The notes under the pieces: model-generated
Seen by the model: only the letters and a program-made list of their open reading frames with translations
The model's database searches: none
Told to the model about the DNA's origin: nothing
Virus record (IMG/VR): IMGVR_UViG_3300036769_000405
Source of the DNA: an uncultured virus (IMG/VR IMGVR_UViG_3300036769_000405)
Lineage: Duplodnaviria > Heunggongvirae > Uroviricota > Caudoviricetes
Strand: one strand, 5' to 3'
DNA length: 60,686 bases
In this document: positions 13,269 to 60,373 of the stretch, in pieces
Layout: each line of letters starts with the position of its first letter
How positions within the stretch are numbered: the first letter of the stretch is position 1
Position numbers and translations under genes: made by a program

Positions 13269-16200
13269 ATGTTTAAATATGAAGACGGAATTTTAAAAAT
13301 TCAAAAGGTTGATGTTCCTAAAATCAATGTTAATGTTATGACAGACTTGCAGGAATCCTATCAGAAGTATATTAGTGAAACTATACATCTTGATATGGAA
13401 TATTTGGCAGATGAACTGAAAAATCATGTCGGTCTTGAAGATGTAGATCTTGTTATTAAGGTAGAACCTTTGAAAGTAACTACATATGACCGATCACAAA
13501 CAAAGAATGGTCAGTGTTACTATCCTGTGCTTGGTTACTTTACAAGACGTGGACTTAAGGTTACTGATGAAGTTGAGATTCTACGTATACCTTACATGGA
13601 CGACTACGGTAAGATCAACGTTAATGGTGCAAGTAAAGTTGTACTGTCTATTCAGAGGTCAGCTGAAGATATTTCCTACACAATGAAGACAGATACTTTC
13701 AACATTGCTATGCCTTATGCTAATGTACGTATTATTGGTTCTAATAAGGCTATTAAGATGCAATATGGTCAGCACAGATATAAGATTGAAGAAATTATTG
13801 AAGCAATGCTCTGGGCAGCAGGTGATAAAACTTCACTGAGTGATATTTTCACAAACACACGACTTATCAATGCAATGGTTCTTGATTCAAGAATTGATTA
13901 TCAGTATGTTTATGAGAAAGTCGTGAACGAAACAAGAAGTAGTAACGCACCTGATACAGATCTTATTAGCAGGCTGAAGAGTAACCAATATAAGCTTGGT
14001 CCTACACGAAACGCTTTGAATGAGAATCTCAATCTGGGTCGTGCTATTGGTAAAACCCTATCAAGAGATGTTCTTTCTTATAAAGCTGGAACTCTTGTTA
14101 CACAGGATATAGTAACTGATTTAATACGAAATCAGGTGAATATTATTCATGTGCAGAATGATATGATTCCGGCTGGTTACTATCTTGCTCAAGAATATCC
14201 AATCATTATCACAACTATTCCTAAAGGAACAAAGAACTGTGAATTACTTAGAATGAAGTTTCCTGAGTATGCTGGTGAATTACACATTCCTGTTGATATT
14301 GAATTAGAACAAGAAAATGCAATCATAATATCTAGCAACCAGGAATTGAAAGCTGAGCAAATTGAGTTGTTAATTAATGGCGGTTACACAAGTTTAAACG
14401 TACATGCTTACAACTCTACAAAGGTTATTAAGTTTTCTTTTGAGCGTGAAATTGTTGGTAACTATACAGCACGGCTTGGTCAACTTACAACAAACATACC
14501 TGCCAGTAGAAGTGCTGATGAGTGGGTCTATTATTATAATAACCCTACACTTGAGTCTAATAACCCTGAGTTCTTAACTTGCCATGATCTCATTGCCATT
14601 GTATCTATCATGGGTGAGATTCTATTGACAAGACAATCAGTACTCCTTGATAGAGATACATCTTATTTAAAGAAAGTACTTATGATAAATGAGATTTTCT
14701 CCGAGACACTTCGTGCAACTATTAGAGAGTTTGTTAGTGCACATCACGTACAAGTTGAGAAGTTTATACAGAACTCGACATCGATGAATCCATTTTTCGG
14801 GTTAACAAAGAAATGGATGTCTCAGATGAACAAGGAGCGTTATCTTGCTCCAGCAGATACAATTAATTTGAGTGCAGAAGTTTCTCAGGTTTGTCACGTG
14901 TCCACGATACTTCCAAGTACTTCTGAAGTTGTGGATGAGCAGAGACATTTGGCAATGCCTTTTTATGGACGTATATGTCCGTATGAAACACCAGCAGGTA
15001 AAAAGCTTGGTATTGTTAATACTAAAGCAATTGGAGCAAGAGTAAAAGACGGTATTCTCTATGCTCCTTACAGAAAAGTAATTCCTACAGCAAATGGAAT
15101 CCGTATTTCAGACAAGATCACTTGGTTATCTGTAAAGGATGAATTAGGGTGTCGTTTTGGAGATATTTTATCTCTCAAAACTGATGCAAATGGTAACTAT
15201 GTTAACAATTACATCCTTGCTAGAATTCCTAATCCTGATATTTCTGATGAACCTTTTATCTTTAAGAATATCAGAGCATTTGATTTAGCAGGTGGTTATG
15301 TTAGTGCTGTTCCAGAACAGTTCTTATCACCAACTGCAGCTTTAATTCCTTTTGCTTGTAATGATGATCCAGTTCGTATCTCATATGGATTATCTCAGTT
15401 GCGCCAGGCAATCTACAATGTTAATTCTCAGAGACCTCGTGTTGTAACTTCTATGTATAGAGATATGTTTACATACTCTGATACTGTTAAGTATACCTCA
15501 TCGTGTGAGGGTACTGTTATTGAAATAAACAACATGGAAGCCAAAATAAGAGGTATTGAGGGAATTACTCACACTGTTCACATGCAGGGATCTGGTCACA
15601 TTGGTAGACTCGATTCAACTATTGAGTTGCATGTCAAGGTTGGTGATATGGTACACGATGGAGATTGCATTGCAGAAGCTCACAAATATCCCCAACCTTT
15701 TGTTGTACGAGCACCCTATGACGGAGTTGTTACAGCTATTGATGATCGGGCTATCACTATTGATAAAAGTGGTATGAACTCACAATGGATTAATATGGAT
15801 TCTACTGATACAGTAGCAATTCAAAATGGTCGTATTGCTGGACAGTCTGCTGTTTTTCTTAACCTGCATGTAAGCGTAGGTGATCATGTAAAGAAAGGTC
15901 AGATATTAGCAGATACCTGTGCATCCCGTGATGGTTTTTATTCACCATCTAGAAACCCATTGGTAGCCTACAGCTGTTACGGCTACAACTATGAAGATGG
16001 CGTCTGTGCTTTTGAGCGAGCATCTATTGGTTACACCAGTATTATTGCACATAAGCTTACAGAAGTTGTTAGTAAGAGACACTATCCTTATTCAAGGGCC
16101 TATATTACCAGTGGTTTTAAGTACTGCGGACCTGGAGATATAATTGGGCGTGTAGTCTCTAGAGAGAACATCAAAGATGAGCATGGTAATAAGAAACCTA

Positions 16201-17306
16201 TTAGGGCTACAAATAAAGTTCATGGCATTCCGATTGAAGTAAATACTCTTGACGATACACCGCGTTCTAAGACTTATGGTTTCTACGTGCTCGGCTTTAA
16301 TAAGTTAAAAGCTGGAGATAAAATGTCTGGACGCCATGGTAATAAAGGTGTTGTTTCAAAAGTACTTCCTGACTCTAAGGCTCCACAGCTTATGAATGGA
16401 AGGACTGTTGAGATTATTTTAAATCCTTGTGGTGTGCCTTCTAGAATGAATGTAGGGCAGATTAATGATACACACTTAGGTCTTGTAGCTGAGGTACTGA
16501 ATGTTTATATTGAATCGGATGCCTTTAATGGAGCAACAACAGAGGACATTAAATACCTTATGCGATATACGTGGACTTTGGCTAACACACCACAAATTGG
16601 TGACAATATCACTCATATCTACAACAAATCTGTCTTTGATCAGGTGTGTAATGCTTTTGATAAGTTACCGAAAGCATTTCATGAAGATGTTTGGAACAAC
16701 ATCGAAAACATTATTGATTGGCGTGACGTATTTGATCCAGATGGTTCTGCTACATTATATGATCCTGAAACAGATACATTCTTTGATGGTAAATGTACAA
16801 TTGGCTTCCCTATGTATAATAAACTTATGCAGGAAGCTGATGAGAAAATTAATTCTCGTGCAGGTATGCTTGAAGAGGACTATGCCAGAACATCATCTCA
16901 GCCTCAGAAAGGAGCAAGTTCTGCAAAAGGTCAACGTATGGCAGAAATGGAGTTAATGGCTCTAGCTGCTATGGGTTGTAGTAACTTTATTGATGAGATT
17001 CTTAATGAAAAGAGTGATAATACAGGAAGACGTACAAACGCCCATTTAAAGCAATTAGGGCTTGATGAACGTGTTGAGGATGATAGCTGTTACTCTAGGA
17101 GTGTTGAGAATCTTATATACTTGTTGGAGGGTTGTGGTGTTAAAGTCGATCTTCCAAAAGAGATTGTAGATGTATCTTATGCAACCTCTAAACGCAAATA
17201 TAGTTTGGATTTGCAGAAAGTTGTTAAAGAACAGCTTAAGTTCGAAGGAACTGCAAAAACAAATATAACAGACACAGCAACTTCATTTTATAATATCGAG
17301 GATTAG
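13269..17306 (+). CDS. rpoB: Divergent DNA-directed RNA polymerase beta subunit
   Basis: Motifs in the expected order: IPYMDDYGKINVNG, YGRICPYETPAG, GYNYEDG, GDKMSGRHGNKGVV, LNPCGVPSRMNVGQ, GQRMAEMELMAL, EKSD. Confidence 0.95.
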   Translation: MFKYEDGILKIQKVDVPKINVNVMTDLQESYQKYISETIHLDMEYLADELKNHVGLEDVDLVIKVEPLKVTTYDRSQTKNGQCYYPVLGYFTRRGLKVTDEVEILRIPYMDDYGKINVNGASKVVLSIQRSAEDISYTMKTDTFNIAMPYANVRIIGSNKAIKMQYGQHRYKIEEIIEAMLWAAGDKTSLSDIFTNTRLINAMVLDSRIDYQYVYEKVVNETRSSNAPDTDLISRLKSNQYKLGPTRNALNENLNLGRAIGKTLSRDVLSYKAGTLVTQDIVTDLIRNQVNIIHVQNDMIPAGYYLAQEYPIIITTIPKGTKNCELLRMKFPEYAGELHIPVDIELEQENAIIISSNQELKAEQIELLINGGYTSLNVHAYNSTKVIKFSFEREIVGNYTARLGQLTTNIPASRSADEWVYYYNNPTLESNNPEFLTCHDLIAIVSIMGEILLTRQSVLLDRDTSYLKKVLMINEIFSETLRATIREFVSAHHVQVEKFIQNSTSMNPFFGLTKKWMSQMNKERYLAPADTINLSAEVSQVCHVSTILPSTSEVVDEQRHLAMPFYGRICPYETPAGKKLGIVNTKAIGARVKDGILYAPYRKVIPTANGIRISDKITWLSVKDELGCRFGDILSLKTDANGNYVNNYILARIPNPDISDEPFIFKNIRAFDLAGGYVSAVPEQFLSPTAALIPFACNDDPVRISYGLSQLRQAIYNVNSQRPRVVTSMYRDMFTYSDTVKYTSSCEGTVIEINNMEAKIRGIEGITHTVHMQGSGHIGRLDSTIELHVKVGDMVHDGDCIAEAHKYPQPFVVRAPYDGVVTAIDDRAITIDKSGMNSQWINMDSTDTVAIQNGRIAGQSAVFLNLHVSVGDHVKKGQILADTCASRDGFYSPSRNPLVAYSCYGYNYEDGVCAFERASIGYTSIIAHKLTEVVSKRHYPYSRAYITSGFKYCGPGDIIGRVVSRENIKDEHGNKKPIRATNKVHGIPIEVNTLDDTPRSKTYGFYVLGFNKLKAGDKMSGRHGNKGVVSKVLPDSKAPQLMNGRTVEIILNPCGVPSRMNVGQINDTHLGLVAEVLNVYIESDAFNGATTEDIKYLMRYTWTLANTPQIGDNITHIYNKSVFDQVCNAFDKLPKAFHEDVWNNIENIIDWRDVFDPDGSATLYDPETDTFFDGKCTIGFPMYNKLMQEADEKINSRAGMLEEDYARTSSQPQKGASSAKGQRMAEMELMALAAMGCSNFIDEILNEKSDNTGRRTNAHLKQLGLDERVEDDSCYSRSVENLIYLLEGCGVKVDLPKEIVDVSYATSKRKYSLDLQKVVKEQLKFEGTAKTNITDTATSFYNIED

Positions 17307-18363: not shown

Positions 18364-19049
18364 TATTACGCGCCATTGTAAATGATTTGACTTGGACACC
18401 CTATGGAATACAATGTGCTGATTACAAGACGGCACACATTGTGCACAAGTTCCTTAGAGAGGCTGTCCTTGACAGACATATCTATGTAAGTAAGATAATT
18501 GGATTTACAGTTAATTCAAATAACACATTCAGAACACATTCTGGTATGTCTATTGCAAGACACAAACAACTTGGTGAAAGTTATCCTGAAATTATGGTTA
18601 ACTTGCTGGATAAAGTATTTTTAGATTCTACATCAGATTTCTTAGATACTTTATTAGTGGCAGGTATGAATACTGTTGTAGACCAACCTTTTGGGGATCT
18701 TCGTGATTACAAGGCTAAAACGCTTTATACAAACCCTAATATCTGTAGATGTTTGGATAAGGAAGCTGTTTTCCGTGTACATGTAAAGTATGATTGTGGA
18801 TATAAGAGTATGGCTGAGAACTCTAAATCTTTGAGCAAAGAGTTCTTTCCTTGTTATACAGATTATTCTCTTGCAGACTATGTAAGAGTATTACCGCTTA
18901 CACCTGGAGAATCATTAGTTCCTATCAGATACTATAATGGTGCTGATATTCAAACATTAAAAGATATTCTGACGAAGTGGTTTATTTATAAGCAGGAAAG
19001 TGGATTGAAAAAGGAGGAGTTATTATGGATGCAAAGTTTCACGCTTTAA
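18360..19049 (+). CDS. rpoA: Putative RNA polymerase alpha subunit, N-terminal (assembly) domain only
   Basis: ATGA overlap with a GGAGG RBS. Colinear motif resemblances: HKFLREAVL ~ GNALRRILL; ESYPEIMVNL ~ EDVTEIILNL; NPNICRCLD...VKYDCGYKSMAEN ~ NPDLHIATL...RGRGYVPAEEN. About 229 aa, immediately upstream of beta'. Confidence 0.6.
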   Translation: MILRAIVNDLTWTPYGIQCADYKTAHIVHKFLREAVLDRHIYVSKIIGFTVNSNNTFRTHSGMSIARHKQLGESYPEIMVNLLDKVFLDSTSDFLDTLLVAGMNTVVDQPFGDLRDYKAKTLYTNPNICRCLDKEAVFRVHVKYDCGYKSMAENSKSLSKEFFPCYTDYSLADYVRVLPLTPGESLVPIRYYNGADIQTLKDILTKWFIYKQESGLKKEELLWMQSFTL

Positions 19050-22000
19050 CGTCTGATGACATTAAGGACATAGGTCCTTTTGTTAAATCAAACGATAACG
19101 TGGATGCCTATGATCTTTTAGAATCTCCAAAGTACATGGAGTTTGAGAAAATGGGTGTCGAGCGTTTATTAGGTAGCACACATGTCCGCAAGGTTATTAA
19201 GCTCGTAGCTCCTACATTCAATCATGTACTGGGTAGAAGTAATTGTACATTATTACAGAAGATGTTAGGATTTGATCAGAAAACTTGGATTGGCATCGTA
19301 GAGATGAAGAAAGTTTTCGATATGGAATCTTTAAACTTCGTTGATATTGATGAAACGATGGATGGTGGAGATTATCTCTATGGTGCTCAGATTGCAGAAT
19401 ATTTCATCAAGAATCTTGACATTGAAAAGGAACTTATTGAGTGTCTGTATAATGTTGCAGGTGACTTTTTCAGAGTAAGTGTTGATCCAAGAGACGTGTT
19501 AACAATCAATAAAAACCCTGAAAACGGTACACACCTGGCTGACAAGTATTTCGCTCATTATGATCCAGTAGCTTTACAGACTGGTTATAAACGAGGTAGA
19601 GATGCTAGTAACTTTGAGTATGATTTTAAGAATCTGTTATTCAAAAATGAAGACAGTCGGCTCTCATACTTACTCAATATGAATCCTGATAAATCAGGAC
19701 TCTACGGAATGCTCAATTATTACATTGTTGTTATTCCTGAGGAAATGCGCCCTAAGATCGATAACCAAGAACATCGGTTGACGAAGCTCTATACAAAAGT
19801 TATTCACGCTAACTATGTTATGCAGACTAACATTAGTAGTATGTCACCAAAGGTTAAACGTCAATCATATTTATCTTTGGAGTTAAGTGTTAAGAAACTT
19901 CAATACAAAAATCAAGGAACCTCTAGGGATGTTACGCCGGATGATCTGTCGCTTCTTGAGCGTGTGAAATCAAAGAAAGGTCAAATCCGTATGAGGAATC
20001 TTGGTAAGAGACAGGATTATTCTGGACGTGCAGTTGTATGTATCAACCCATATTTACCATTGGATGTTATTCGAGTACCTCAGTTTATGTTACCGAAGTT
20101 ACTTGAATTCCATATCCTGCCATATCTTGCAAAGAATATTAAGCGAAACAATTACGAGGTTGCACACAATCAACATATGGCAAACATCTATGATCATCTG
20201 CGTTTAGGTAATCTTGAAACACCAGAAACCCGAACTGAAATGCTACGGATTATTAATGATGAGCATTTACTTGATAAAATTCCTGGAGTTCTTGGTCGTC
20301 AGCCAACCTTGCACAAACAGTCATTACAAGGTTTCCATTTGGAGATATCAGATCTGCAGGCTATTGAAGTTAACCCTTTAGTTTGTCCTGCATTCAATAT
20401 GGACTTTGATGGAGATCAAGCACACATTGAAATACCTCTGTCTGAAGCTTCTATTAAGGAAGTTAATGATTTAGTTCTAACAACTCAAAACCTGTTCTTG
20501 CCTAAGACTGGAGAATGTACAACTGAACCTAGACAGGATATGTTGTATGGTCTTTGGTTATGTACAAATAATTCATACAAGATTCAAAATCCAGTCCAGT
20601 CCTACAGTGATTTGAATGAAGTTAGAGACGCTGTTATTAAACATCAAATTAAGGTGTGGGATACAGTTACTGTTCTCAGTATTGGAGGACCAATTATTGC
20701 AGGAGATGCTGCTTTCATGGCATGTTTTCCAAAAGGAGATATTGTACCAAGAGGCACTATATCAGGTAGTGGTAAACTATCAGTTGAAGAAATTAACAAG
20801 AAATCTATCACGAAGTACATTGACTATATGTTACGTACTGACAGTTCTGGTAACTTTGTGCATAAGATTGGTACAGGACATGCTAGTACAGAAACTTTTG
20901 TTGGCACAATCAACGCCCTGGTGGAACTTGGCTTCAGAGTTGCTAGGCTTTACATCCCAAACATGTCTATGTTAATGGATAGTGAGCCAATACCAGAGTA
21001 TGATAAAGCTATTGATAAGTTCTATGATGATATGTCAGATATTGATCTTTATTACAATCTTGGCCTGGAGACATCAGACAATTACAAGATTGTATTTTCT
21101 AAGAACTTGGATAAGCTGAACAATACACGACGTGATGGTGTACTTGATAAACTTGGTAAAGACAGTGGTTATGTTAAACTTTCTGTCTCCGGTGCTAGAG
21201 GTTCTAAAGATAATTTACTGCAGACATTCTCTATCAAGGGACAAGTAAAGAAGAATTCAACAGAAGCTTTTGATGCTTTACTGGAGAATGCTTATGGTAC
21301 TCAGTTGACTCCACTTGAGCATTTTGTTGCAGCCTATGGTGGTCGACAGGGTCAGATTGATAAGTCACTTAAAACCGGTGATACTGGATATGCTATGCGA
21401 CAGATGTGGCATGCTACTCAAGGTATGATGATTACTTGTGAAGATTGTGGTACTACACGTGGTATTACGATTAAGAAGAGTGATCTCACTATATTTATCG
21501 ATGATGATTCTAATAAAGAAAAGCTGAATGCTGAAGTAGAAGATATGTTTGCTCACACAATCCTTGGACGATATAAGGTTGGTAGTAACAAACTAATTAC
21601 CGAAGCTGAAGCTAAAGCCTGGGCACACAGTAAAGATGTTGAGTCTATAGTTATTCGTTCACCACTTACTTGTAATAACCCATGCTGTAAAAAATGTTAT
21701 GGCATTGATTGGTCTACGAGAAAGCCTGCAGTTGTAGGATTACCTGTTGGAATTATTGCAGCTCAGTCTATTGGTGAACCTGGTACACAGTTGACTTTGA
21801 AGACATTCCAGCAGGGTGGTGTAGCTGGTCAAGCTACAGTTACGTCTGCATTTGATCGTGTAGATCACTACATTCATTTACATGATCTTGCTGATTTAAG
21901 CAAACGTGGAAAGTATCCTGGATATGATCCACTTGCTTGGGCTACTGGTCCGGTTAACGAAACACCAGCTTCTGATATCAACATGAAAGTAATAACAATT

Positions 22001-22552
22001 GGAGATAACAAAAAGAAACGTATCTTAGTTCCCAAGGATGTTGTTTTGAAAACAGAGGCTGTTAAGGGTCACGGTTTGTCCTATAAACATGGTGACTATG
22101 ATTTACGTGAGATTATTGCATACAGTGGTGTTGAAGCTGCTCAGCAGTATCTCATGTTTAAGTTATACGCTCTATATAAGAGTGAAGTAAAAATAAAAAC
22201 GATACACTTTGAAGTACTAGTTGGAGACATGACCCGCTACATGATTGTTGCTACAGATCGCAGTGATTTAATGGTTGGGCAGTATGCAACAGCTCAAGAG
22301 TTATATCGGGGAAATGTTAAAAATACTGAATACATACAAAGACTTGTAGGTGTAAAAGGGCTTATAAATGCTTCACATTCAGCTTTGGATTCTATTATTA
22401 TGGAATCACAAGTTGAGGGCCTATCTCGCATCTGCTTGTTAGGTATGTCCGATTCTTTAACTAAACCACTCAATCGTATGGTTCTAGGCCAATCTATCTT
22501 AGATGGTTCTGCTAAACCTGGTTTCATAGAAAATCGGAAAGAAAGTATTTAG
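19025..22552 (+). CDS. rpoC: Divergent DNA-directed RNA polymerase beta' subunit
   Basis: KKGQIRMRNLGKRQDYSGRAV, RQPTLH, catalytic NMDFDGD, SGARGS, bridge-helix-like KTGDTGY, Zn site EDCGT/RSPLTC/CKKCYG and AAQSIGEPGTQLT. Confidence 0.95.
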   Translation: MDAKFHALTSDDIKDIGPFVKSNDNVDAYDLLESPKYMEFEKMGVERLLGSTHVRKVIKLVAPTFNHVLGRSNCTLLQKMLGFDQKTWIGIVEMKKVFDMESLNFVDIDETMDGGDYLYGAQIAEYFIKNLDIEKELIECLYNVAGDFFRVSVDPRDVLTINKNPENGTHLADKYFAHYDPVALQTGYKRGRDASNFEYDFKNLLFKNEDSRLSYLLNMNPDKSGLYGMLNYYIVVIPEEMRPKIDNQEHRLTKLYTKVIHANYVMQTNISSMSPKVKRQSYLSLELSVKKLQYKNQGTSRDVTPDDLSLLERVKSKKGQIRMRNLGKRQDYSGRAVVCINPYLPLDVIRVPQFMLPKLLEFHILPYLAKNIKRNNYEVAHNQHMANIYDHLRLGNLETPETRTEMLRIINDEHLLDKIPGVLGRQPTLHKQSLQGFHLEISDLQAIEVNPLVCPAFNMDFDGDQAHIEIPLSEASIKEVNDLVLTTQNLFLPKTGECTTEPRQDMLYGLWLCTNNSYKIQNPVQSYSDLNEVRDAVIKHQIKVWDTVTVLSIGGPIIAGDAAFMACFPKGDIVPRGTISGSGKLSVEEINKKSITKYIDYMLRTDSSGNFVHKIGTGHASTETFVGTINALVELGFRVARLYIPNMSMLMDSEPIPEYDKAIDKFYDDMSDIDLYYNLGLETSDNYKIVFSKNLDKLNNTRRDGVLDKLGKDSGYVKLSVSGARGSKDNLLQTFSIKGQVKKNSTEAFDALLENAYGTQLTPLEHFVAAYGGRQGQIDKSLKTGDTGYAMRQMWHATQGMMITCEDCGTTRGITIKKSDLTIFIDDDSNKEKLNAEVEDMFAHTILGRYKVGSNKLITEAEAKAWAHSKDVESIVIRSPLTCNNPCCKKCYGIDWSTRKPAVVGLPVGIIAAQSIGEPGTQLTLKTFQQGGVAGQATVTSAFDRVDHYIHLHDLADLSKRGKYPGYDPLAWATGPVNETPASDINMKVITIGDNKKKRILVPKDVVLKTEAVKGHGLSYKHGDYDLREIIAYSGVEAAQQYLMFKLYALYKSEVKIKTIHFEVLVGDMTRYMIVATDRSDLMVGQYATAQELYRGNVKNTEYIQRLVGVKGLINASHSALDSIIMESQVEGLSRICLLGMSDSLTKPLNRMVLGQSILDGSAKPGFIENRKESI

Positions 22553-50800: not shown

Positions 50801-51439
50801 GGTGGGGAGAATGTCATGATTGCTGCCTTTGATAAGATGGATATGTTGAACATGACATTAACTCTCGTTAAGCAGTTGAAGAGAAAAGAAAATTGCTCAA
50901 TAATTATGAATGTACAGGATATTGATACTCATACATTACTTGATGTTGAAAACCTTGTTGATGAAAAATTTTTAAGTCTTAGTTATCCAAAACAAGATCT
51001 TTATGAATTTGTAGATGCACTGAATACTATGGTTGAACGTAGATTGGAGATAGGCGGACCTTATAATCCTGTTTATGTCTTCTGTGTACAGTGGGAGAGA
51101 GCGCCTCATATATCAGTAGATATAGACTACAAATTTGGAGATAAGTTTAAAGATTTACTTCGTAAGGCTCCTAATGTTGGTGTTCACTTTGTATTTAGTT
51201 GCCGTGAGAAGTTAGATATGCAACGATATATTCCAGCTGCTTGTAATCATAGGGTAGTAGGACTTATGCCTAAGGATGCTGTATTCTTTGTTGAGACAAC
51301 TAAAGTTGAAAAGCTCCCAGACTCTAATGCAGATAAAGGTTTGTTTGCATTCTATGAATTTGGTACAACGCTTATTAAGTTTAGAATATATCAACATGAA
51401 TACACAAAGACTGTTAAGTCTAGAGAAATCGTTATATAA
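47852..51439 (+). CDS. FtsK/SpoIIIE-family ATPase, EssC/EccC-like (type VII secretion-like)
   Basis: Coiled coil and TM hairpin, then HALLGGATGAGKS (Walker A), YIDFK, LPRLLVIFDEFQ (Walker B) and LARAMAAHFWFTSQ, flanked by degenerate ATPase-like segments. Confidence 0.85.
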   Translation: MISGKYYSESLQSTVQQFEQAYLTPLQKYKDISVMPADLVSLLAYEHTINQRADELKAVHIPPLSFDVKNNVIQYYDALDKQQKDKKESIIANAQMKKNNLIAEHDQQVKDAHVYNETLINPIREKHEELLSYKDDLSYVFEHYDISPLDIEISDNITVNEFETLIDESLKTCLKYTRKENGVFSKLTAPLKGETNLTFTLCYVLIALVIIYFCLPILTVPAFVILFMSVHNMYKDMEKLRIARALMTQLDYNRFVPQNELKSVDELDTSFVDIEMQKELSDIKDYSIERDTAMKQLTEEVSLIAKECEESRQRVTSAYAECIALYDKTAKQVHNKIEEMLHDYHPFPTVQNDSVVMSHVYTLGRLEEQLDITATLPMLNIVFNDASHEVAINTMKLYLANALLSVRVKQLTIEIFDPKNMCGDFTEFFTPETKPYIKPNNMSLEDLMKTYREYSQKNVLELDKKSIDEFNADAEKNELVPKEYKLLLLISETSKLSEGDQKKLFGEYFKFSASTGVMVWLLDTKQWPNSIWVDGSYSMKGECIKYTPSLGREATDTFAKALANYKDKGIDYVTKFGNVFIPKEKWWTFDTIHGIKMPYGLENGDPTRGLNVAPEIGDANVHALLGGATGAGKSAAINQLLISLICMYPPSELQIVYIDFKNVEAAKFTKGYDLKTNEWYTPEKEQALRESETYYTRLSRIPHLRIISGTTDGEYALSVFEFLMQEMARRQQIINKFGVTKIEEMRNQILAKYNTEHNGNPKKGSWADMRKDWNWYKPNVYDKYGDLPRLLVIFDEFQVMYNPEFVDDKIINQINGKITAITKLARAMAAHFWFTSQSMKGTMSKDTMGNFSLRGALRCDADVSNELLGNKAASEINAKFGFMYTNDSAGQNKDANRFWRVPFLDEKNMPSYIDTLNNMLEPFNEKHLMAEFYDEKILVPATVMNDWYENYPDTFSSPDTFILGERANFSTNKAPVAISLQEDGGENVMIAAFDKMDMLNMTLTLVKQLKRKENCSIIMNVQDIDTHTLLDVENLVDEKFLSLSYPKQDLYEFVDALNTMVERRLEIGGPYNPVYVFCVQWERAPHISVDIDYKFGDKFKDLLRKAPNVGVHFVFSCREKLDMQRYIPAACNHRVVGLMPKDAVFFVETTKVEKLPDSNADKGLFAFYEFGTTLIKFRIYQHEYTKTVKSREIVI

Positions 51440-52859: not shown

Positions 52860-53312
52860 ATGAGTAAAACAACTGTAAAGTTACTAGGTTTTTATGTAAT
52901 CATATTAATAATTGTGTATGCAACAATTGGTGTGCTTTATTTGTTAACATCTAATAAAGATGTAACTTCTATCACTGTGGAATATGCATCACCAGACGTA
53001 ATTAAAACAGTAGCTCATATAACTTTGGATAGTGAGAAATATGAACTTATTTACGAAGATGATGATAATGATATAGCTTATTATCGAGTACTGGATAGAG
53101 ACAACCTTGTTTCTGTTGGGGATACTGTTTATACAATTAATGGTGATGAAACAACAGTAACTGCTACCGATGTTTATGGATTCTATGTAGAATACAATGA
53201 AGTATTTTATCCCGGGATGTCTGGTAGTGTTATTATAAATTCTACTGGTAATTCAGTTGGTTATGTTAGTAGACTTGATAACAGTGAATTCGTTTATTGT
53301 ATTTGGAATTGA
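52860..53312 (+). CDS. Membrane-anchored protein with a trypsin-like serine protease motif
   Basis: N-terminal TM; FYPGMSGSVIINSTGNSVG resembles GxSGS/P. Confidence 0.55.
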   Translation: MSKTTVKLLGFYVIILIIVYATIGVLYLLTSNKDVTSITVEYASPDVIKTVAHITLDSEKYELIYEDDDNDIAYYRVLDRDNLVSVGDTVYTINGDETTVTATDVYGFYVEYNEVFYPGMSGSVIINSTGNSVGYVSRLDNSEFVYCIWN

Positions 53313-53323
53313 GGTGATTTCTT

Positions 53324-54025
53324 ATGAAGAAGTTACTGTCCATGCTTGTAGCTCTATTTATGAGTTTACTTAATGGTACAGACTATATCATTACTGCAGA
53401 TAAACCTTATACTGAAACTTATTATACTGTAGATGAAGCTGATCCTCCTGATTACAGAACGTACTATGGAACTGTCTCAACTTCTACTGCAACTGAGAAT
53501 TGTAAGACTACCAATTACTCTGCTGATGGTAAACATGTCGATAATTCACAAGGTTATTGGTTTGTGAACAACAGAACTGTGTCTTTAGAAACTGTTGATA
53601 GTTATCAAGTTGCTCATCACGTAAACAATGATCCATTAGGTGACGTTGATTATTATGTTGCTCAGGGATGTTTTACAGATGGTAGTTATATTATCATGCC
53701 ATATACTGGAACATTACAATCTGAAAGTTTAACTAATGATTGTACTTCCATGGTTGTTTATTGCACAGCTTTAAGTGGTGTAGAATACAAATTAGTAATT
53801 AGTAACATGAGTTGTTGGTACTGTGATGTAGGACGTGTTGATTCCCCTACATATCATACAAGTTCCGAACAGAATGGTAAGAAGTTTCAGGCAGGTAATG
53901 TACTTGGACGTGCTACGTCAAATACAACAATAAAAGTGATTCCCATCAGTAATGGTTCTTCTATAGGTACAGCTACTTTGTCTGAATTCTATAGTGGAAC
54001 TTATACTTCACCTGATGAAACTTAG
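53324..54025 (+). CDS. Secreted protein, possible degenerate M23-like fold
   Basis: Signal peptide; IIMPYTGTL and GKKFQAGNVLGRA segments. Confidence 0.5.
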   Translation: MKKLLSMLVALFMSLLNGTDYIITADKPYTETYYTVDEADPPDYRTYYGTVSTSTATENCKTTNYSADGKHVDNSQGYWFVNNRTVSLETVDSYQVAHHVNNDPLGDVDYYVAQGCFTDGSYIIMPYTGTLQSESLTNDCTSMVVYCTALSGVEYKLVISNMSCWYCDVGRVDSPTYHTSSEQNGKKFQAGNVLGRATSNTTIKVIPISNGSSIGTATLSEFYSGTYTSPDET

Positions 54026-54048
54026 TTGAGAGTTCCAAATATAATTGC

Positions 54049-54077
54049 TATAAAACGTTTAACGTTTTATATATAAT
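54049..54077 (+). promoter_or_regulatory. Palindromic operator next to a TATAAT box upstream of the WXG100-like genes
   Basis: TATAAAACGTT-T-AACGTTTTATA (54049-54071) directly followed by TATAAT (54072-54077). Confidence 0.5.
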
Positions 54078-54187
54078 TGTAGATAGACTGGAAAGAATAT
54101 CTGCAAGCAACCAAGTAAGTTGTAGAGATTTGAGTCGCCACTTATCTCTAATATAACTTATATAAAATTTTGACGGAGGTAAGTATT

Positions 54188-54484
54188 ATGTCGAATGGTC
54201 AGATGACTCTTGATGTCGAAGCCGTTTCCGCTGCTGTCAATCAGATTGACTTAGCTATCGGTGACATCAAGACGCGTAACGAGAAGTTCCTTTCCCTGCT
54301 TGAGGAGAAGAACAACGAGACTAAGGGTAAGTTCTCCCTTATTAAGAGTCTGAAGGAAAGAGTTACTGATGAGGAGAAGAACATCAGTGCTGCAATCGCG
54401 GCTACTGAGTCGATCAAGGAATCTATCCGGAAGTACACTGCTATGGCTGAGGATGCAGATGATGATTCTGCATTCAGACGCTAA
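54188..54484 (+). CDS. WXG100/ESAT-6-like small helical protein
   Basis: 98 aa, helix-turn-helix layout with central TKG; N-terminal MTLDVEAV; near the EssC-like ATPase; GGAGGT RBS. Confidence 0.55.
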   Translation: MSNGQMTLDVEAVSAAVNQIDLAIGDIKTRNEKFLSLLEEKNNETKGKFSLIKSLKERVTDEEKNISAAIAATESIKESIRKYTAMAEDADDDSAFRR

Positions 54485-54507
54485 TCAAATCAAGGAGGTA
54501 AGCTGAC

Positions 54508-54864
54508 ATGGCTGGTAAAGGACCTTTAGATGTCGTACTGGACATCCCGGCAATTAACGAGATCATCGTATTTGCCAATCAGTACAAGCAGGAAGTAAGT
54601 GAGAAAGCAGACACGATCAGAACTCTGTGTAAGCAGATGACTGAGAACGAGTCTCTTAACGGTGGAGATGGTGAAGAAATTAAAGCCAGCTTCAAAGAGA
54701 TCGCTAAGGGATGCAATCAGCTTGAGCAGTCTGTTGATCACATCGTAGCTGTTCTGAATTCTAAGCTTGATACCATGATCAAGATGAACAAGGGCACGAC
54801 TACGGGAGCAGCTTCTGATGAAGCTAAGAAAGCTTCTAACAGCATGGGTGTACTCAAAGAGTAA
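54508..54864 (+). CDS. WXG100/LXG-like small helical protein
   Basis: 118 aa with central SLNGGDG between amphipathic helices; AAGGAGGT RBS. Confidence 0.6.
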   Translation: MAGKGPLDVVLDIPAINEIIVFANQYKQEVSEKADTIRTLCKQMTENESLNGGDGEEIKASFKEIAKGCNQLEQSVDHIVAVLNSKLDTMIKMNKGTTTGAASDEAKKASNSMGVLKE

Positions 54865-54886
54865 AATTAACCCTGTTGCAGTTTTT

Positions 54887-54913
54887 GGGAGGGTCATACT
54901 TAATGACCCTCTC
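54887..54913. terminator. Hairpin after the WXG100-like pair
   Basis: GGGAGGGTCAT-ACTTA-ATGACCCTCTC. Confidence 0.55.
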
Positions 54914-54970
54914 ATTCTGAGTTATAGACTATACTAAATTAACAACTTGAACTTAAGGAGAAGTTAAACT

Positions 54971-55591
54971 ATGTATGAAATCAATACAGGACGTTTGGAG
55001 CCAGCGGTATTTGATAGGCTCTATGAAGGATATTTACTCAACTCTAAATATGGGGAAACAAATGTTCCAGACAGTGAGAAAAGATCTGTTTTGGAATACA
55101 TACTTAAGCATTGTACAGATGAATGTGCTTATGTTTGGTACAATAATTTCGTATTAAGAAAATCTGTAAAATGTATCAGTAATGAGTCAGGTTTAGCAGC
55201 TCATGAAATAAATGCTGAGAAGTCTAGATTCTCACGAATGATGAATAACAGCATTACAATCGAAGCTCTACGTTTTGGTACGGAAGCTGCTAAGAGAAAA
55301 GAACAGCAAACTCGGGCTATTGTTGGTGATACTTCATTAGCCCTTAACATAGCAAATGGTAATGTAGACATCAAGTCTGTAGAAAAAGATGTCAAGATAC
55401 CATTTGCAAGAGTATTTGTAAATGATACTAAGATACCTAGACACGTGGTTTATTGCTTATCAAATATGGGTATCTCTACTCTACAGGAACTTATTGATTC
55501 AAATATACAATGCATTGAAGAATGTTACGACATAAGTGAAAGTATTGCACAGAGCATTGAAACATTAAGAAACCGATGCATTCGTAGCTAA
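54971..55591 (+). CDS. Sigma-region-4-like HTH fused to a degenerate RNAP alpha-CTD (paralogue 1)
   Basis: Colinear with 55612..56229 (MYEI...L.P.VFD.LYE...YGE...D.EK..VL.YIL...YVW..NF); C-terminal IPRHVVYCLSNMGISTLQELI. Confidence 0.65.
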   Translation: MYEINTGRLEPAVFDRLYEGYLLNSKYGETNVPDSEKRSVLEYILKHCTDECAYVWYNNFVLRKSVKCISNESGLAAHEINAEKSRFSRMMNNSITIEALRFGTEAAKRKEQQTRAIVGDTSLALNIANGNVDIKSVEKDVKIPFARVFVNDTKIPRHVVYCLSNMGISTLQELIDSNIQCIEECYDISESIAQSIETLRNRCIRS

Positions 55592-55611
55592 ATCAAAAGG
55601 AGGACTATACT

Positions 55612-56229
55612 ATGTATGAGATTGCTGAAAAAGATCTAACACCTGAAGTGTTTGATCTCTTGTATGAGAAGAAGCAATATAAAGTTTTATACGGAGAATC
55701 ACAGTTGTCTGATGATGAAAAGGTTGCGGTTCTTAAGTATATACTGAACAAAGTTCCGGATATAACCGGTTATGTTTGGTTCAAAAACTTTATACAGAAA
55801 GTAACAATGAAAAAGCTTTGCGCAGAACTCGACATTACTATGGATGAACTCAGATTGCAATTCCGCAAGTTCACTACCTATTGTGATTTTCCGGATATCA
55901 AAATAGCATTACGTGAGGGTGTGGATGCGGTCAATAAGTATAATTTAGAAATAGCACACAAGCGTGAAAATATCCTGCAACTCTATGAAATTGCTAATGG
56001 TAGATTATCAATTAGTGAAATGACACCTGGAAATGAGAAGTATTGGTGTGATATTCAAGTAATTCAATTGAATTTATCTACCAGAGCAAAGAACGCTTTA
56101 ATTCACAATGGAGTGAATACTATTGCTGATTTACTAAAATTGGATAAACAATCCGTAAAGAGTTTCCGGAACGTTGGTACTCAAACAGCAATTGAAATTG
56201 AACAGTTGAAAAATCGTTGTACTAAGTAG
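55612..56229 (+). CDS. Sigma-region-4-like HTH fused to an RNAP alpha-CTD (paralogue 2)
   Basis: C-terminal LNLSTRAKNALIHNGVNTIADLLKL...FRNVGTQTAIEI matches alpha-CTD (LSVRSYNCL..AGI.T..DL...RNFG.KS..EI). Central TMKKLCAELDITMDELR is HTH-like. Confidence 0.8.
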   Translation: MYEIAEKDLTPEVFDLLYEKKQYKVLYGESQLSDDEKVAVLKYILNKVPDITGYVWFKNFIQKVTMKKLCAELDITMDELRLQFRKFTTYCDFPDIKIALREGVDAVNKYNLEIAHKRENILQLYEIANGRLSISEMTPGNEKYWCDIQVIQLNLSTRAKNALIHNGVNTIADLLKLDKQSVKSFRNVGTQTAIEIEQLKNRCTK

Positions 56230-56265
56230 TTATAAAAATAATTTATATAAAGGAGATTTACTTTA

Positions 56266-59031
56266 ATGGAGATTAAGAAAAGACTTATCACACAAGGGGC
56301 TAGTGAGGTCAACGCTGTATTGTTGAATGATGAGGGTGAGGAATATCCAGTATTCCTCGAATCCTTGCACAATACAATTATCTTTCCTACACTGATGGAA
56401 AGTGGTTACGTTCTTGAAAGTTTGCCTTATGGCCTTATTAAGAATGGTGTATCTTTTGATCAGTTACCAATTGAGAATTACACAGTAACTCCTGTTGAAG
56501 AGGAGTTGATGTACAACTCTATTGGAGTTAAGCTTGATTATGATGAGTTGAAGAAACACATCATTGTCACGGCAGCAAAGGGTATGGATACCCCACCTAC
56601 CAATTACACAATCTTCACTAGAGAAGATTTATTAAAGTATCTTGATGCGACAGCTTCTGCTACATTGGAAGAAGATTACATGCCACTGAACTATTTTGTG
56701 GCACCGGAAGCTCGGTTTTCTATCAAAGAGTATAAGAGTCCTGAGAACTTTAAGTATATCAACCTGATTAGTAACAGACGTGAGATGTCTTTATCAAAGT
56801 TTAATAAACTTATTAATACTTTGCTTCAGATCAATCTGCCTGCTAACTATACGCCAATGGATGTTCTCGACGCTTACTTTGCTTGGGGTATGGATGGTCT
56901 TAATATGCCTATCATCAGCAGACGACGCGAGTCAAGACCATTCAGGTTAAACACAAATAGAAACATCAATGCACCTATGGTCAATAAGACTTATGGTTTT
57001 GTTGATGGAGCAGGTAACCTGTTGACGCCTAAGAATCAAAGAGATGTTCCTTGGAGATTGAGTAACAAGGATCCTAAGTTTGTTGAAGCGCTCATTGCTG
57101 GGATGCAGATGAATGATACCAGATTGGTTGAATTTAGTGCACCGGCAAAGCAGGAAGTAACAATTCTGGAGGGTGTTGAATTCAATATTCAGTACACAGA
57201 TGAAGTTCTTGTTATGCAACTTCAGACTTATCCATCTATCCGTGTAACATCTCCAATAAGTATTAACGAAGTTCTTGATCTCCGAAATGCTTTGCCTAAC
57301 AACAAGGAAGCTTTGTATGAGCACTGTACGATTGATGCACTTGCTCACATGCTCTATGATTACAGAAAATCTACAGTCAAAGTTTCTTCCTATGATGCAT
57401 TAAAGATTGCAGGTTGTAATCCATCTACGGTTCTCAATTATATCGTTACAAAATATGATATGTCAAAAGAGAATCGGATGACAACGGAAGATGCGGCACC
57501 ACAGATTTTTGATTTTGATATCGAGAATTACCTTGCAGGTAACTTTGTATCAGACGATGTTAAGATGTTCCTTGATGATGTAGTATCAGGTGTATTCAAC
57601 ATTGATGAGATCGAGAAAGGTAAACAGGCAGAAGCTTCTGTAAACACTACATCAGTGTATCGTGAAATCTATGCGATACATAATGTCATGGGAATCAGTT
57701 TGCAGGATATCTACGACAAGTTTCGAATGGTCGACAATACTACAAGAGTTATTACGTTCAGCAATGGTGAACTCCAGCATACGATGGATGTCTCACCGCT
57801 TATCTATAGTCTTACTGGTTACAAGCGTGACCTTATGCACTACGACCTGGAGAATGCAAAGAACTGTACGTTTTTTACGTATGTAACTCTTGTTGCTAGA
57901 GAGGTTGGAGATGAGCGTGCACGAAGACACGTAGGTATGGAATTTTACATGGTTAATAAGAAGTATGCAGCCGTTAAAGAAATTCTATCTGACTTATCTA
58001 AACGTTATGAAGATAAGGTCACAAATATGATCCCGGATATCACAAAGCAGGCTTCTCAGTTACGGTTGGTTGATATGTTTACACTCAGCCGCTATTTTGA
58101 AATTGCTTTGAATGGTACAATTACGTGGCCGAATATCCTTGGTGGAACAGTTGAACCTGCAATGCCAAGTACTATCGAAACTGCAAGAAAGTATCTTGAA
58201 AGAAAGATCGAAAATATTACATCTTACTGTTCATTTACAGCCAACACGTCCAGTGTTAGAGATCTGACTTTCAATGCATACTGTACAAATGCATACATTA
58301 CTCCTGAGTATGTTATTCCAAGAAGCAATGCTCCTATCAGAGAAATTCCATTCTACGCTGCCTGGTTCGATTGGCAACATCAATCACCAGCTGTTTGGGA
58401 GCAGTTAGTAAACGCTAACGTTATCTCAGTAGATTTCCAATCTTGGGATTCGCGCTATGCTCATGAGCAGTTTGTTCAAAGAGATATCTTCAGTCTCGAC
58501 TCTAAGGACTCTTTATTGTATTATTACACGAATGCTCAGGAAGAGGTGCACAACTACCCAAGTGATAAGGATTTTATTGCAGTAACACATCCTGTGGATT
58601 ATATGTTTCCGGGATTAAATGTTGACAAAGATCCATTTGAAAATGTGGAAACATTACCTATCCATCGACAGGGTGACCCTATTGTTAGACTTGGAATAAC
58701 TCACAACATTACAAAGAAAGATTATGCTGACAAGCTGCTTCCATCGGAATCCATTGAACAGAAAGAATCTTATATTAGACAGTTTAAGGGATTCAGTGCT
58801 GAAACATTAATCCTTGTTCCTAATGTGTTTGAAAAGATTCCGGATCAGAAAGCAAATACATTAACTGTTATGGCAAAGTCTGAAACAGTTTATGTTCCTG
58901 AAACAAATGACGTTATGAACTTCAGACGCATCACAGAATTGGATCAGAGCATGTATGCTATATCACATATCTGTGATAGGACTTACATTCTTCGTGCGGC
59001 TGACGGTAAGCTTTGGGAGGTACGTATTTAA
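56266..59031 (+). CDS. Large hypothetical protein (921 aa)
   Basis: AAAGGAG RBS; coupled to the second PolA by a TAATG overlap. Confidence 0.8.
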   Translation: MEIKKRLITQGASEVNAVLLNDEGEEYPVFLESLHNTIIFPTLMESGYVLESLPYGLIKNGVSFDQLPIENYTVTPVEEELMYNSIGVKLDYDELKKHIIVTAAKGMDTPPTNYTIFTREDLLKYLDATASATLEEDYMPLNYFVAPEARFSIKEYKSPENFKYINLISNRREMSLSKFNKLINTLLQINLPANYTPMDVLDAYFAWGMDGLNMPIISRRRESRPFRLNTNRNINAPMVNKTYGFVDGAGNLLTPKNQRDVPWRLSNKDPKFVEALIAGMQMNDTRLVEFSAPAKQEVTILEGVEFNIQYTDEVLVMQLQTYPSIRVTSPISINEVLDLRNALPNNKEALYEHCTIDALAHMLYDYRKSTVKVSSYDALKIAGCNPSTVLNYIVTKYDMSKENRMTTEDAAPQIFDFDIENYLAGNFVSDDVKMFLDDVVSGVFNIDEIEKGKQAEASVNTTSVYREIYAIHNVMGISLQDIYDKFRMVDNTTRVITFSNGELQHTMDVSPLIYSLTGYKRDLMHYDLENAKNCTFFTYVTLVAREVGDERARRHVGMEFYMVNKKYAAVKEILSDLSKRYEDKVTNMIPDITKQASQLRLVDMFTLSRYFEIALNGTITWPNILGGTVEPAMPSTIETARKYLERKIENITSYCSFTANTSSVRDLTFNAYCTNAYITPEYVIPRSNAPIREIPFYAAWFDWQHQSPAVWEQLVNANVISVDFQSWDSRYAHEQFVQRDIFSLDSKDSLLYYYTNAQEEVHNYPSDKDFIAVTHPVDYMFPGLNVDKDPFENVETLPIHRQGDPIVRLGITHNITKKDYADKLLPSESIEQKESYIRQFKGFSAETLILVPNVFEKIPDQKANTLTVMAKSETVYVPETNDVMNFRRITELDQSMYAISHICDRTYILRAADGKLWEVRI

Positions 59032-60362
59032 TGGCTATTGATATTAACCGTTTTGAATTACCTATCACACCAGCTGAGGCTCGTGATTACATTCAGAGAA
59101 ATACCGATAACTTCGGTATTTTCTTTGATGTTGATCGTTGCTGTGAATTATCCGCAATTCTACAGTTGGATATGCTTGATACAATCAGGAAGTTGCGTAG
59201 GCTTAGTTCAAACCCTATGTTGAGCCTGGATAATAAAGATTCTGTTATTGATACACTCATTAAAATGGGTGTCAGTAAGACAGAATTTTTTGACAGCAAA
59301 TCGCGAAACATTATTTTTACAGAAGCAATCCGAAAGTCTATTTTAGAAAACGGGAAGTACAGTGAAGATGTTCACGAATTTGTTAAAGGATTTAGTGTGT
59401 ACGCTTCGGCTAAAAGAAATAAAGGTAATATTGAGAATTTTGCATTCCGTCAGCCTCAGTCTATAGCTTTATCAAAACTGAATCACCGTATGTCCCTTGG
59501 TCGACCAAATTGGAAGTTGTTGAATACCAGTAGGATTGCAGCTGAGAATCCTGGCATTCAAGGTATCCCAAGAACTATGGGTGATATTGTGTGTGAGCCA
59601 AAAGGTTATACTCTTATACGCTGCGATTCTGGGCAGATTGAACCACGTATCAACTTCTCTTACTTCATTAGAGATGAATTGATTATGGATTTGATCAACT
59701 TCTACGATGATGCTTATTTTGGGCTTTTGATATATTGTCTAATGACACCGGAAGAAGAAGAAGCTTGCCGAGTTAATTTTGAAGCAAACTTCAAAGAAGT
59801 TGAAATCACTGACGAAGTAAAAGATAAACGTCAGATGTTAAAGAAGCTTACAAATGCAGGGTCTTACGGTTCTAGTAATTTGTCTGGAATTGATCCAGCA
59901 CTTTCTAGTAGTTATGAGAAAAAGATCATCAATCATCCTGCAAGGTTGGCTTTGGAGGCCAGAGTTCGTGAAGCAGTAAATCATGGTGAAGAAACTTTCT
60001 ATGGATTCTTTGGAACTCCTGTAACCCCGGATGCTACTGAAAAATATTCAAAGGGTGATAAAGGTTGGACAGAACATGTTATCCGTTGTGGGATTAACAA
60101 TCCCGTACAAACAACAGCTTCAGAACTTATGATGTTTTCCGTGAACAAAGCACGTGAGATTTTAAGTCGTGCTAAGGATTCTCATATTTGTTTTTATAAG
60201 CACGATGAAGCCTGCTTCTATGTTTCAGACGAAGATATGGCTAATGGCATTGGAGATGAATTACAGGAAATCACTGCTTACAATGTTAAAGGCTGGCTAC
60301 CTATTCATTCAGATCCACTTGTTGGTATTAAACCAAGCGGTTATCCTTCTTACATTTTGTAA
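59031..60362 (+). CDS. Second family A DNA polymerase, polymerase domain only
   Basis: TSRIAAENPGIQGIPR, motif A CDSGQIEPR, motif B RQMLKKLTNAGSYG, NNPVQTTASE and motif C KHDE. No exonuclease motifs. Confidence 0.85.
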   Translation: MAIDINRFELPITPAEARDYIQRNTDNFGIFFDVDRCCELSAILQLDMLDTIRKLRRLSSNPMLSLDNKDSVIDTLIKMGVSKTEFFDSKSRNIIFTEAIRKSILENGKYSEDVHEFVKGFSVYASAKRNKGNIENFAFRQPQSIALSKLNHRMSLGRPNWKLLNTSRIAAENPGIQGIPRTMGDIVCEPKGYTLIRCDSGQIEPRINFSYFIRDELIMDLINFYDDAYFGLLIYCLMTPEEEEACRVNFEANFKEVEITDEVKDKRQMLKKLTNAGSYGSSNLSGIDPALSSSYEKKIINHPARLALEARVREAVNHGEETFYGFFGTPVTPDATEKYSKGDKGWTEHVIRCGINNPVQTTASELMMFSVNKAREILSRAKDSHICFYKHDEACFYVSDEDMANGIGDELQEITAYNVKGWLPIHSDPLVGIKPSGYPSYIL

Positions 60363-60373
60363 TTCTTCCTAAG

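Follow-up and report, generated by a model that had tools for sequence, protein, structure and literature searches.

Two tandem genes of a large uncultured element encode degenerate members of a family joining a sigma region 4-like domain to an RNA polymerase alpha-CTD

The window analyzed here is a stretch of 60,686 nucleotides from an uncultured Caudoviricetes virus (IMG/VR record IMGVR_UViG_3300036769_000405). It carries two adjacent genes, A and B, which are a diverged tandem duplication of a protein built from sigma region 4 (sigma4), a long helix and the carboxy-terminal domain of the RNA polymerase (RNAP) alpha subunit (alpha-CTD). They are new members, unusually degenerate and in tandem, of a sigma4/alpha-CTD family that is recurrent but unstudied, and they probably steer transcription. 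The genes and their domains are located as follows.

54971..55591, + strand: gene A, open reading frame (ORF) with ATG start, 206 amino acids (aa); degenerate sigma4-like/alpha-CTD-like paralogue
55067..55279, + strand: A residues 33-103, sigma-region-4-like domain (profile-profile comparison and family alignment)
55394..55588, + strand: A residues 142-206, degenerate alpha-CTD-like domain (residue map, family alignment)
55612..56229, + strand: gene B, ORF with ATG start, 205 aa; sigma4-like/alpha-CTD fusion protein
55612..55797, + strand: B residues 1-62, N-terminal extension and first two sigma4-like helices; best conservation between A and B
55708..55920, + strand: B residues 33-103, sigma-region-4-like helix-turn-helix (HTH) domain of three or four helices (hhalign, fold, alignment)
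55921..56034, + strand: B residues 104-141, linker with a long helix (104-128) and a loop, as seen in the secondary structure of the model
56035..56226, + strand: B residues 142-205, alpha-CTD domain (Pfam, fold, residue map)

BLASTP aligned A with B from end to end with zero gaps (56/205 residues identical, 27%; E 8e-25), as expected of paralogues. The identity is unevenly spread. It reaches 47% in residues 1-32 and again in residues 33-62, and drops to 16-20% in three later segments, namely the recognition-helix region, the linker and the CTD.

The alpha-CTD half was readily recognized in B. Residues 147-198 match the Pfam model RNA_pol_A_CTD (PF03118), scoring 46.3 bits where 23.8 is the cut-off (E 3.4e-12), the motifs LNLSTRAKNAL and FRNVGTQT are present, and 20 of the 21 PDB sequence hits of B at E<=1 are RpoA chains aligned at their CTD. 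Whole-protein rpoA models touch only this part of B (39.9 bits against a cut-off of 277). No Pfam model at all, RNA_pol_A_CTD included, matched A. A single-sequence AlphaFold2 (AF2) model of B was unusable (predicted local distance difference test, pLDDT, 53), so that an alignment-based model was used instead. Built on a 23-row family alignment, it reached a mean pLDDT of 92.7 and a predicted template modelling (TM) score of 0.72. Its residues 142-205 superpose on the Bacillus subtilis alpha-CTD (1z3e_B) with a VIA-align Z of 9.4 and a root-mean-square deviation (rmsd) of 1.3 A over 64 residues; Foldseek returned the same fold (TM, target, 0.79; rmsd 0.9 A).

The alpha-CTD of Escherichia coli RpoA was then added to the family alignment to locate the DNA-contact positions, which we take to be R265, N268, N294, G296, K298 and S299 in E. 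coli numbering. B carries R158, N161, N187, G189, Q191 and T192 there and thus keeps four of the six, with Q191 and T192 at the positions of K298 and S299. A carries H158, Y161, D187, S189, S191 and I192 and keeps none. The 21 other family members are far more regular at these positions (R in 21/21, N in 18/21, N in 17/21, G in 20/21, K in 12/21 and S in 17/21). The residue map therefore suggests that the core of the minor-groove and UP-element-binding surface is retained in B and wholly lost in A, in which the fold-determining hydrophobic positions L163 and T170 are kept.

The N-terminal half required an indirect approach, because the Pfam model Sigma70_r4 (PF04545) matches neither A nor B. 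When residues 33-104 of a joint A+B profile were compared with the sigma4 region of PF04545-positive relatives, hhalign gave a probability of 96.7% (E 3.2e-10). The C-terminal part of the same profile scored 98.4% (E 5e-15), and two cross-domain controls of this split comparison scored 0.2-0.3%. In the model of B, residues ~28-102 superpose on sigma domain 4 with Z 7.3-8.1 over 57-73 residues (rmsd 1.2-2.5 A). The matches comprise CnrH, SigK, SigL, SigW, SigE and primary sigmas, about 30 structures at Z 5.6-8.1. Together, profiles and predicted fold argue for homology of both N-terminal halves to sigma region 4.

The recognition helix has diverged in both copies. The corresponding stretch reads DITMDELRLQFRKFTTYCDFP in B and GLAAHEINAEKSRFSRMMNNS in A, against a family consensus of G.TRERIRQI..KA.RKLRHP; position for position, the consensus TRERIRQI becomes TMDELRLQ in B and AAHEINAE in A. 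The net charge of the helix is +1 in A and B, compared with a family median of +4. The alignment thus indicates a degenerate recognition helix that has lost its -35-reading residues in both copies. Sigma70_r2 did not match A or B at E<=10, nor did Pfam detect the alpha N-terminal assembly domain (RNA_pol_L/RNA_pol_A_bac) in either protein. Lacking sigma region 2 as well as the alpha N-terminal domain, A and B are neither sigma factors nor alpha subunits, and the model of B, a protein of only ~205 aa, accounts for both of the domains described.

These results bear out most of what the initial annotation had read from the sequence: two paralogues of about 205 aa at 54971..56229, an alpha-CTD with LSTRAKN and RNVG in the second copy, and before it an HTH resembling sigma region 4. 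The first copy was rightly called more degenerate, since A has no Pfam match, keeps 0/6 DNA-contact residues and matches the family with a probability of 90% compared with 98.8% for B. The hidden Markov model search that had been proposed supports only part of the picture, RNA_pol_A_CTD being positive for B and negative for A and Sigma70_r4 negative for both.

A HMMER search with the A+B profile over 1.84 billion representative proteins returned 273 proteins at E<=1e-3, most of them made of several alpha-CTD repeats. The strongest matches other than A and B (P0003, P0006, P0009 and P0020) are uncharacterized proteins with 3-6 tandem alpha-CTD repeats, and some repeat proteins add Sigma70_r4 and HARE-HTH (P0003: 1171 aa, 6 repeats). 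Eight matches span one long stretch, and seven of these carry both PF04545 and PF03118. The A+B profile aligned with these eight relatives over 167 collinear columns (probability 98.9%, E 1.3e-17). Against a profile of 21 relatives, B alone scored 98.8% and A alone 90.3% (E 1.5e-6, collinear over 157 columns), while all 40 shuffled controls stayed at or below 0.7%. By these profile comparisons A and B appear as outlying members of a free-standing sigma4-linker-alpha-CTD family, with only 13-24% identity to the other members. The typical layout is an N-terminal motif, sigma4, a long helix and the alpha-CTD in ~190-290 aa. Variants exist: the phage members L002, L003 and L010 and the protein P0152 have an extra N-terminal XRE-type HTH, and P0061 and P0132 an N-terminal Cys-rich, zinc-ribbon-like segment.

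When two canonical members served as queries, one locus with phage-like neighbors turned up in a metagenome-assembled genome of Clostridia. In IMG/VR the same two queries gave 300 relatives, of which 80 were kept; ten of these loci cover both domains and the other 70 match the sigma4 part only. In all five loci examined, the family gene sits in a replication/modification module among genes for helicase, primase, polymerase, SSB, exonuclease and methyltransferases. Gut Clostridia-type bacteria harbor the architecture repeatedly, in phages and in further mobile elements. The fusion has no NCBIfam model of its own; of 23 members, 22 match the NCBIfam rpoA models, via the CTD only, and 20 match sigma70 models. 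PHROGs gave nothing for A or B, and neither a paper on a sigma4 plus alpha-CTD fusion in the full-text literature nor a curated family model was found. The family appears to be recurrent, mostly phage-borne and unstudied.

The gut mobile element that carries the pair also encodes large RNAP subunits of its own. The exact B sequence is on record in five contigs, the longest of 184,686 bases; the element is therefore at least 185 kb long and is phage or plasmid-like. The subunit genes in the window are the following.

13269..17306, + strand: RNAP beta, divergent bacterial type, 1345 aa, shortened flap region (Pfam Rpb2_6, E 5e-35)
19025..22552, + strand: RNAP beta', divergent bacterial type, 1175 aa (Pfam Rpb1_5, E 3.6e-33; Rpb1_2, E 2.3e-25)

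The beta' subunit scored 388.8 bits against TIGR02386, whose cut-off is 963.5. In beta, HMMER local alignments place 79 residues in the flap region between two well-aligned blocks where B. subtilis beta has 120; the values are 82 versus 124 for a plastid beta and 73 versus 114 for a cyanobacterial beta. BLASTP against E. coli RpoB likewise left 83 residues standing for 226 (flap plus SI2 insertion). A MAFFT global alignment of the flap with E. coli was dropped as unreliable, as it aligned to the SI2 insertion. A flap region ~40 residues shorter would fit a missing flap tip. Elsewhere in this subunit, residues ~773-884 (15585-15920) form an extra lipoyl/barrel-sandwich-hybrid-like segment just before the conserved NYED block. 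It matches RnfC_N (E 4e-9), Biotin_lipoyl_2 and NQRA_N and, compared with E. coli beta, seems to have been inserted or duplicated.

An alpha N-terminal domain, and hence any alpha subunit with or without its CTD, was not detectable in the window. The search covered 53 ORFs with Pfam at E<=0.01, 18 ORFs at E<=5 and 12 ORFs with NCBIfam; ORFs between 37.8 and 54 kb were covered at E<=0.01 only. A PDB phmmer search with the 215-aa and 250-aa ORFs that flank beta' gave 0 hits, a four-sequence profile of the conserved 250-aa ORF retrieved only hits to a GTPase from the PDB (E 0.04), an ESM Atlas search for alpha gave no usable hit, and a regular expression for a GNALRR-like motif found none.

Sigma region 4 and the alpha-CTD are neighboring polymerase modules on the upstream half of bacterial promoters, where the alpha-CTD binds UP elements beside sigma4 at -35. 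Since the canonical members keep both DNA-reading surfaces, the ancestral protein probably sat on DNA resembling an UP element plus -35. In A and B the sigma4-like half would no longer read DNA and would serve as a protein-contact module instead: its recognition helix has decayed, the preceding helices and the N-terminal extension are conserved, and the sigma4/gp33 fold is one that grips the flap. By analogy, the contact could resemble that of sigma region 4 or T4 gp33 with the tip of the beta flap. PMC7824862, which also cites the gp33-flap structure, describes both minimal phage sigmas and gp33 as sigma4-like HTH proteins that dock on the beta-flap. The target would most likely be the host polymerase, whose flap is intact, because relatives occur in phages without a polymerase and the element's own beta appears to have no flap tip. 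With its alpha-CTD, B may then anchor the polymerase on the AT-rich DNA upstream in element promoters, or replace sigma4 there. A, with the same contact half and a DNA-blind CTD, may be a modulator or switch that competes at the same site. We give a probability of roughly 0.4 to this reading of A and B as transcription adaptors, which combines a protein contact of the sigma4-like half, most likely with host RNAP, with binding of AT-rich DNA by B and a modulating role for the DNA-blind A.

Several points weigh against these adaptors. Binding of A or B to any polymerase or DNA is a prediction from sequence and model, and host RNAP is a presumed target. The assignment of the missing ~40 residues to the flap-tip helix segment was judged by eye and is likewise presumptive. 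Support for the sigma4 assignment comes from profile-profile comparison and fold, PF04545 giving no match to A or B even at E<=10. A Z of 7-8 is middling for small helical domains, though the list of matches is consistent, and the AF2 alignment consists mostly of canonical family members, which means that the fold and the homology claim are not independent of each other. Apart from the pair itself, none of the 1.84 billion representatives scored below 1e-30, and no close orthologue was found among them; a word-index search returned only the query itself, and viral contigs gave no close relative. The pair may therefore be a fast-evolving accessory and not a core function. Finally, k-mer depth over A/B in RNA libraries is ~2-5 compared with 26-40 for the upstream genes, the 104-aa and 118-aa genes being about ten-fold deeper than A/B in three of four gut libraries, with the limit that such libraries can contain DNA and that contig depth cannot rank genes. 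Co-folding of A with B, run twice without controls, scored 0.00 each time where the mark is 0.32; the result is evidence neither way.

A simpler view is that A and B are plain operator-binding repressors or activators, acting through an HTH of changed specificity and the helix-hairpin-helix, with RNAP contact inessential. Both domains are indeed DNA-binding folds, most family members keep both DNA-reading surfaces, family genes lie among early and replication genes as phage regulators do, and some relatives (L002, L003, L010) add an XRE-type HTH. However, A has neither of the canonical DNA-contact surfaces (0/6 positions; AAHEINAE), the recognition helix of B has a charge of +1 where the family median is +4, and the best conservation between A and B lies in residues 1-62 and not in the recognition helix. 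We consider plain regulators somewhat unlikely, although they come closest to the adaptors in plausibility.

The polymerase genes of the element invite another interpretation, in which A and B are detachable subunits for upstream-promoter recognition by the element's own enzyme, supplying an alpha-CTD and a sigma4 module in trans. The element encodes divergent beta and beta' subunits, no alpha is detectable in the window, the flap region of beta is ~40 residues short, and B keeps alpha-CTD DNA-binding residues. The conservation of the first 62 residues between A and B looks as if made for a shared partner. There is also precedent, as PMC7598289 describes phage multisubunit RNAPs that work without alpha and omega and with unusual initiation factors; the absence of a detectable alpha in the window matches this. 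An alpha-less, trimmed-flap RNAP could accordingly be imagined to place promoter recognition on interchangeable factors, B recruiting the enzyme to AT-rich DNA and A switching it between promoter classes, a scheme that we regard as improbable.

Most of the distribution data run the other way. The architecture is older than the element's RNAP and independent of it: beta was found in none of the ten viral records with a both-domain family member, four of which are rated 100% complete, and the same search found beta in 14/14 cellular genomes. Conversely, in the 26 (of 49) viral loci with a distant beta' relative that were searched for an alpha-CTD, there was one match below threshold and none above the cut-off. 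A distance of 33 kb separates the pair from the conserved beta-beta' block. In 125 related loci, none of the 15,173 ORFs up to 10 kb on either side of beta' resembles A or B, although this range falls short of the syntenic position at 33 kb. No close orthologue turned up among the 1.84 billion representatives, though beta' relatives of 31-56% identity exist in metagenomes. Moreover, if the flap tip is missing, the canonical docking site for sigma4 on the element's enzyme is missing too. Service to the element's own polymerase is therefore unlikely in our view, and nothing ties A and B to it.

Accordingly, the proposal of the initial annotation that the fusion arose to complement the element polymerase is not supported, the same architecture being present in phage records of which 0/10 have beta. 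Its premise of a CTD-less alpha and a flap-less beta survives in the second part, the flap region being ~40 residues short, and not in the first, as no alpha is detectable. A distribution independent of the RNAP cluster, which it had named as a refutation, was found for the family at large only. The alternative it had offered, redirection of host RNAP, would fit the evidence better than complementation of the element's enzyme, with the host enzyme as a presumed partner.

The alpha-CTD is a hub for activators, and host factors that bind it include, in low-GC Gram-positives, the Spx-type regulators. The alpha-CTD-like domains of the pair, especially that of A, could therefore be decoys that titrate such factors and disable activator-dependent transcription. 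The best structural match of the CTD is indeed the B. subtilis alpha-CTD in its Spx complex (1z3e_B, Z 9.4), and A keeps the fold positions L163 and T170 while losing the DNA contacts. This match, however, reflects the fold and not the Spx interface; we rate decoys as a long shot. That A and B are decaying, functionless duplicates of an acquired phage gene, as 27% identity, lost canonical residues and the lack of orthologues might suggest, is hardly credible given two intact, indel-free frames of near-equal length, strong ribosome-binding sites on both genes, a confident predicted fold (pLDDT 92.7), selective conservation of the N-terminal third and pieces of the pair in four RNA libraries.

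The immediate surroundings of the pair contain three further features.

54889..54911, + strand: hairpin with a 9-bp stem, GAGGGTCAT-ACTTA-ATGACCCTC, read from the sequence, between the 118-aa gene and gene A
54955..54960, + strand: strong Shine-Dalgarno sequence AAGGAG, 10 nt 5' of the ATG of gene A
55596..55603, + strand: strong Shine-Dalgarno sequence AAAGGAGG, 8 nt 5' of the ATG of gene B

The hairpin is a possible terminator or processing site, and its position between the upstream 118-aa gene and A means that A-B may start a new transcription unit. It was not called by the terminator scan because its T-run is poor. Scans for sigma70-type promoters and terminators over 53000-60686 stayed at chance level, and CTATANTAT-like motifs close to gene starts were not enriched (5 seen, 6.2 expected). 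An ORF of 921 aa, for which no family, PHROG or ESM Atlas lead was obtained, starts 36 nt after the end of gene B. Upstream of A lie two genes for small helical proteins, 54170-54484 (104 aa) and 54508-54864 (118 aa), downstream of an FtsK/EssC-like ATPase gene (47852-51439). The two proteins recall substrates of the WXG100 type, a resemblance that no family match supports.

Four gut metatranscriptome runs from four studies (X1-X4) contain contigs at 99+% identity. These contigs lie within A, over the A/B junction (55546-55696 in two runs and 55509-55729 in one) and in the 921-aa ORF; 54808-55009 and 55818-56322 are without cover. They indicate only presence in the libraries and not proven transcription. 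Contigs from the upstream genes end at 54795 in two runs, a weak hint of a unit boundary near the hairpin.

The window has ~35% G+C, and its coding sequence lies almost wholly on the + strand. Besides the RNAP subunits it encodes a family-A DNA polymerase, Hsp70, pieces of an NAD ligase, an M23 peptidase and an FtsK/EssC-like ATPase; no phage structural PHROG hit the window. The beta' subunit is at most ~30% identical to anything in GenBank phages. Its metagenome relatives show 56% (L084, a 243-kb contig), 41-42% (L094 included) and 31-34% identity (eight contigs of 169-180 kb). The order of giant ORF, 112-aa ORF, beta, YdjM-like gene, 250-aa ORF, beta', M23, ligase, Hsp70 and PolA is common to the relatives, and the beta/beta' block is conserved in metagenome contigs of 99-243 kb (loci L083-L094) and absent from IMG/VR at this similarity. 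Given this shared order, the element looks like a member of an undescribed lineage of large elements. The giant elements named 'Inocle' were considered as the element type; the Inocle paper has no occurrence of 'RNA polymerase', and no link was made.

Several other genes of the window deserve mention. The NAD-dependent DNA ligase seems to be split over two distant ORFs, 24970-26232 with the adenylation domain (PF01653; phrog_3869 positions 24-279) and 40033-40809 with the C-terminal part (phrog_3869 positions 507-653). Two ORFs resemble family-A DNA polymerases: that at 34370-37807 (1145 aa) matches PF00476 with an E of 1e-56, and in that at 59013-60362 (449 aa) the similarity is confined to a small portion of the polymerase domain (profile positions 290-347, E 4.5e-6). 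The latter ORF shares an overlap with the final part of the 921-aa ORF. The 2899-aa ORF at 4091-12790 has no Pfam, NCBIfam or PHROG match, and its C-terminal third is 28-33% identical in L084 and L094. A 384-aa protein (29248-30402) with HTH_23 (E 2e-8), HTH_7 and weak Sigma70_r4 (E 0.004) matches is a candidate transcription factor.

What makes this family notable is that it joins just these two promoter-side modules, without any polymerase-building part, and has spread through gut phages. A and B amount to a natural dissection of it: B has only the alpha-CTD DNA contacts, A has neither DNA surface, and both have the N-terminal third. The pair is thus suited to asking what a sigma4-like half that does not read DNA is for, be it polymerase capture, sigma competition or decoy. 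An element with its own divergent beta and beta', a short flap and no detectable alpha also raises the question of how its polymerase finds promoters; were A and B to serve that enzyme after all, this would be modular, 'plug-in alpha-CTD' promoter recognition recruited from a family of phage regulators.

Compared with known systems, residues 142-205 of B resemble the RpoA alpha-CTD (PF03118; 1z3e_B, 1lb2, 3k4g) in fold, in a Pfam score above the cut-off and in the equivalents of R265, N268, N294 and G296. Unlike RpoA, this CTD stands without an alpha N-terminal domain and has Q and T in place of K298 and S299, and in A all six contacts are replaced. Residues ~28-102 of B are superposable on sigma70 domain 4 (PF04545; 2h27, 4cxf, 6dv9_F, 7ye1_F) and profile-homologous to it via the relatives, but A and B differ from sigma70 factors in having no regions 2 and 3 (core binding, -10 recognition), no Pfam region 4 match and replaced -35-reading residues. 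Phage proteins annotated as alpha-CTD in BFVD, an automatic annotation, such as those of the Rhodococcus phage Finch (A0A2P1JY10) and the Mycobacterium phage Mithril (A0A5Q2WLP1), are stand-alone and 120-240 aa long; their Foldseek matches are weak (E >= 0.024) and mostly confined to a single domain.

T4 gp33 and the minimal single-HTH phage sigmas, as described in PMC7824862, are analogous to A and B in being small, sigma4-like HTH proteins that grip RNAP. The difference lies in the tether, which for gp33 is the sliding clamp and for B would be DNA, bound via the alpha-CTD; flap binding by A and B is an analogy, no sequence or fold match to gp33 having been sought. The closest counterparts are the PF04545 plus PF03118 fusion proteins themselves, with which A and B share a collinear architecture, a similar length and a mobile-element context. 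A and B stand apart from the other members as a tandem pair with one DNA-blind copy, by their degenerate recognition helix and by residing on an element of at least 185 kb with its own beta and beta', while the relatives are without an element RNAP (0/10), a difference of context and not of the protein.

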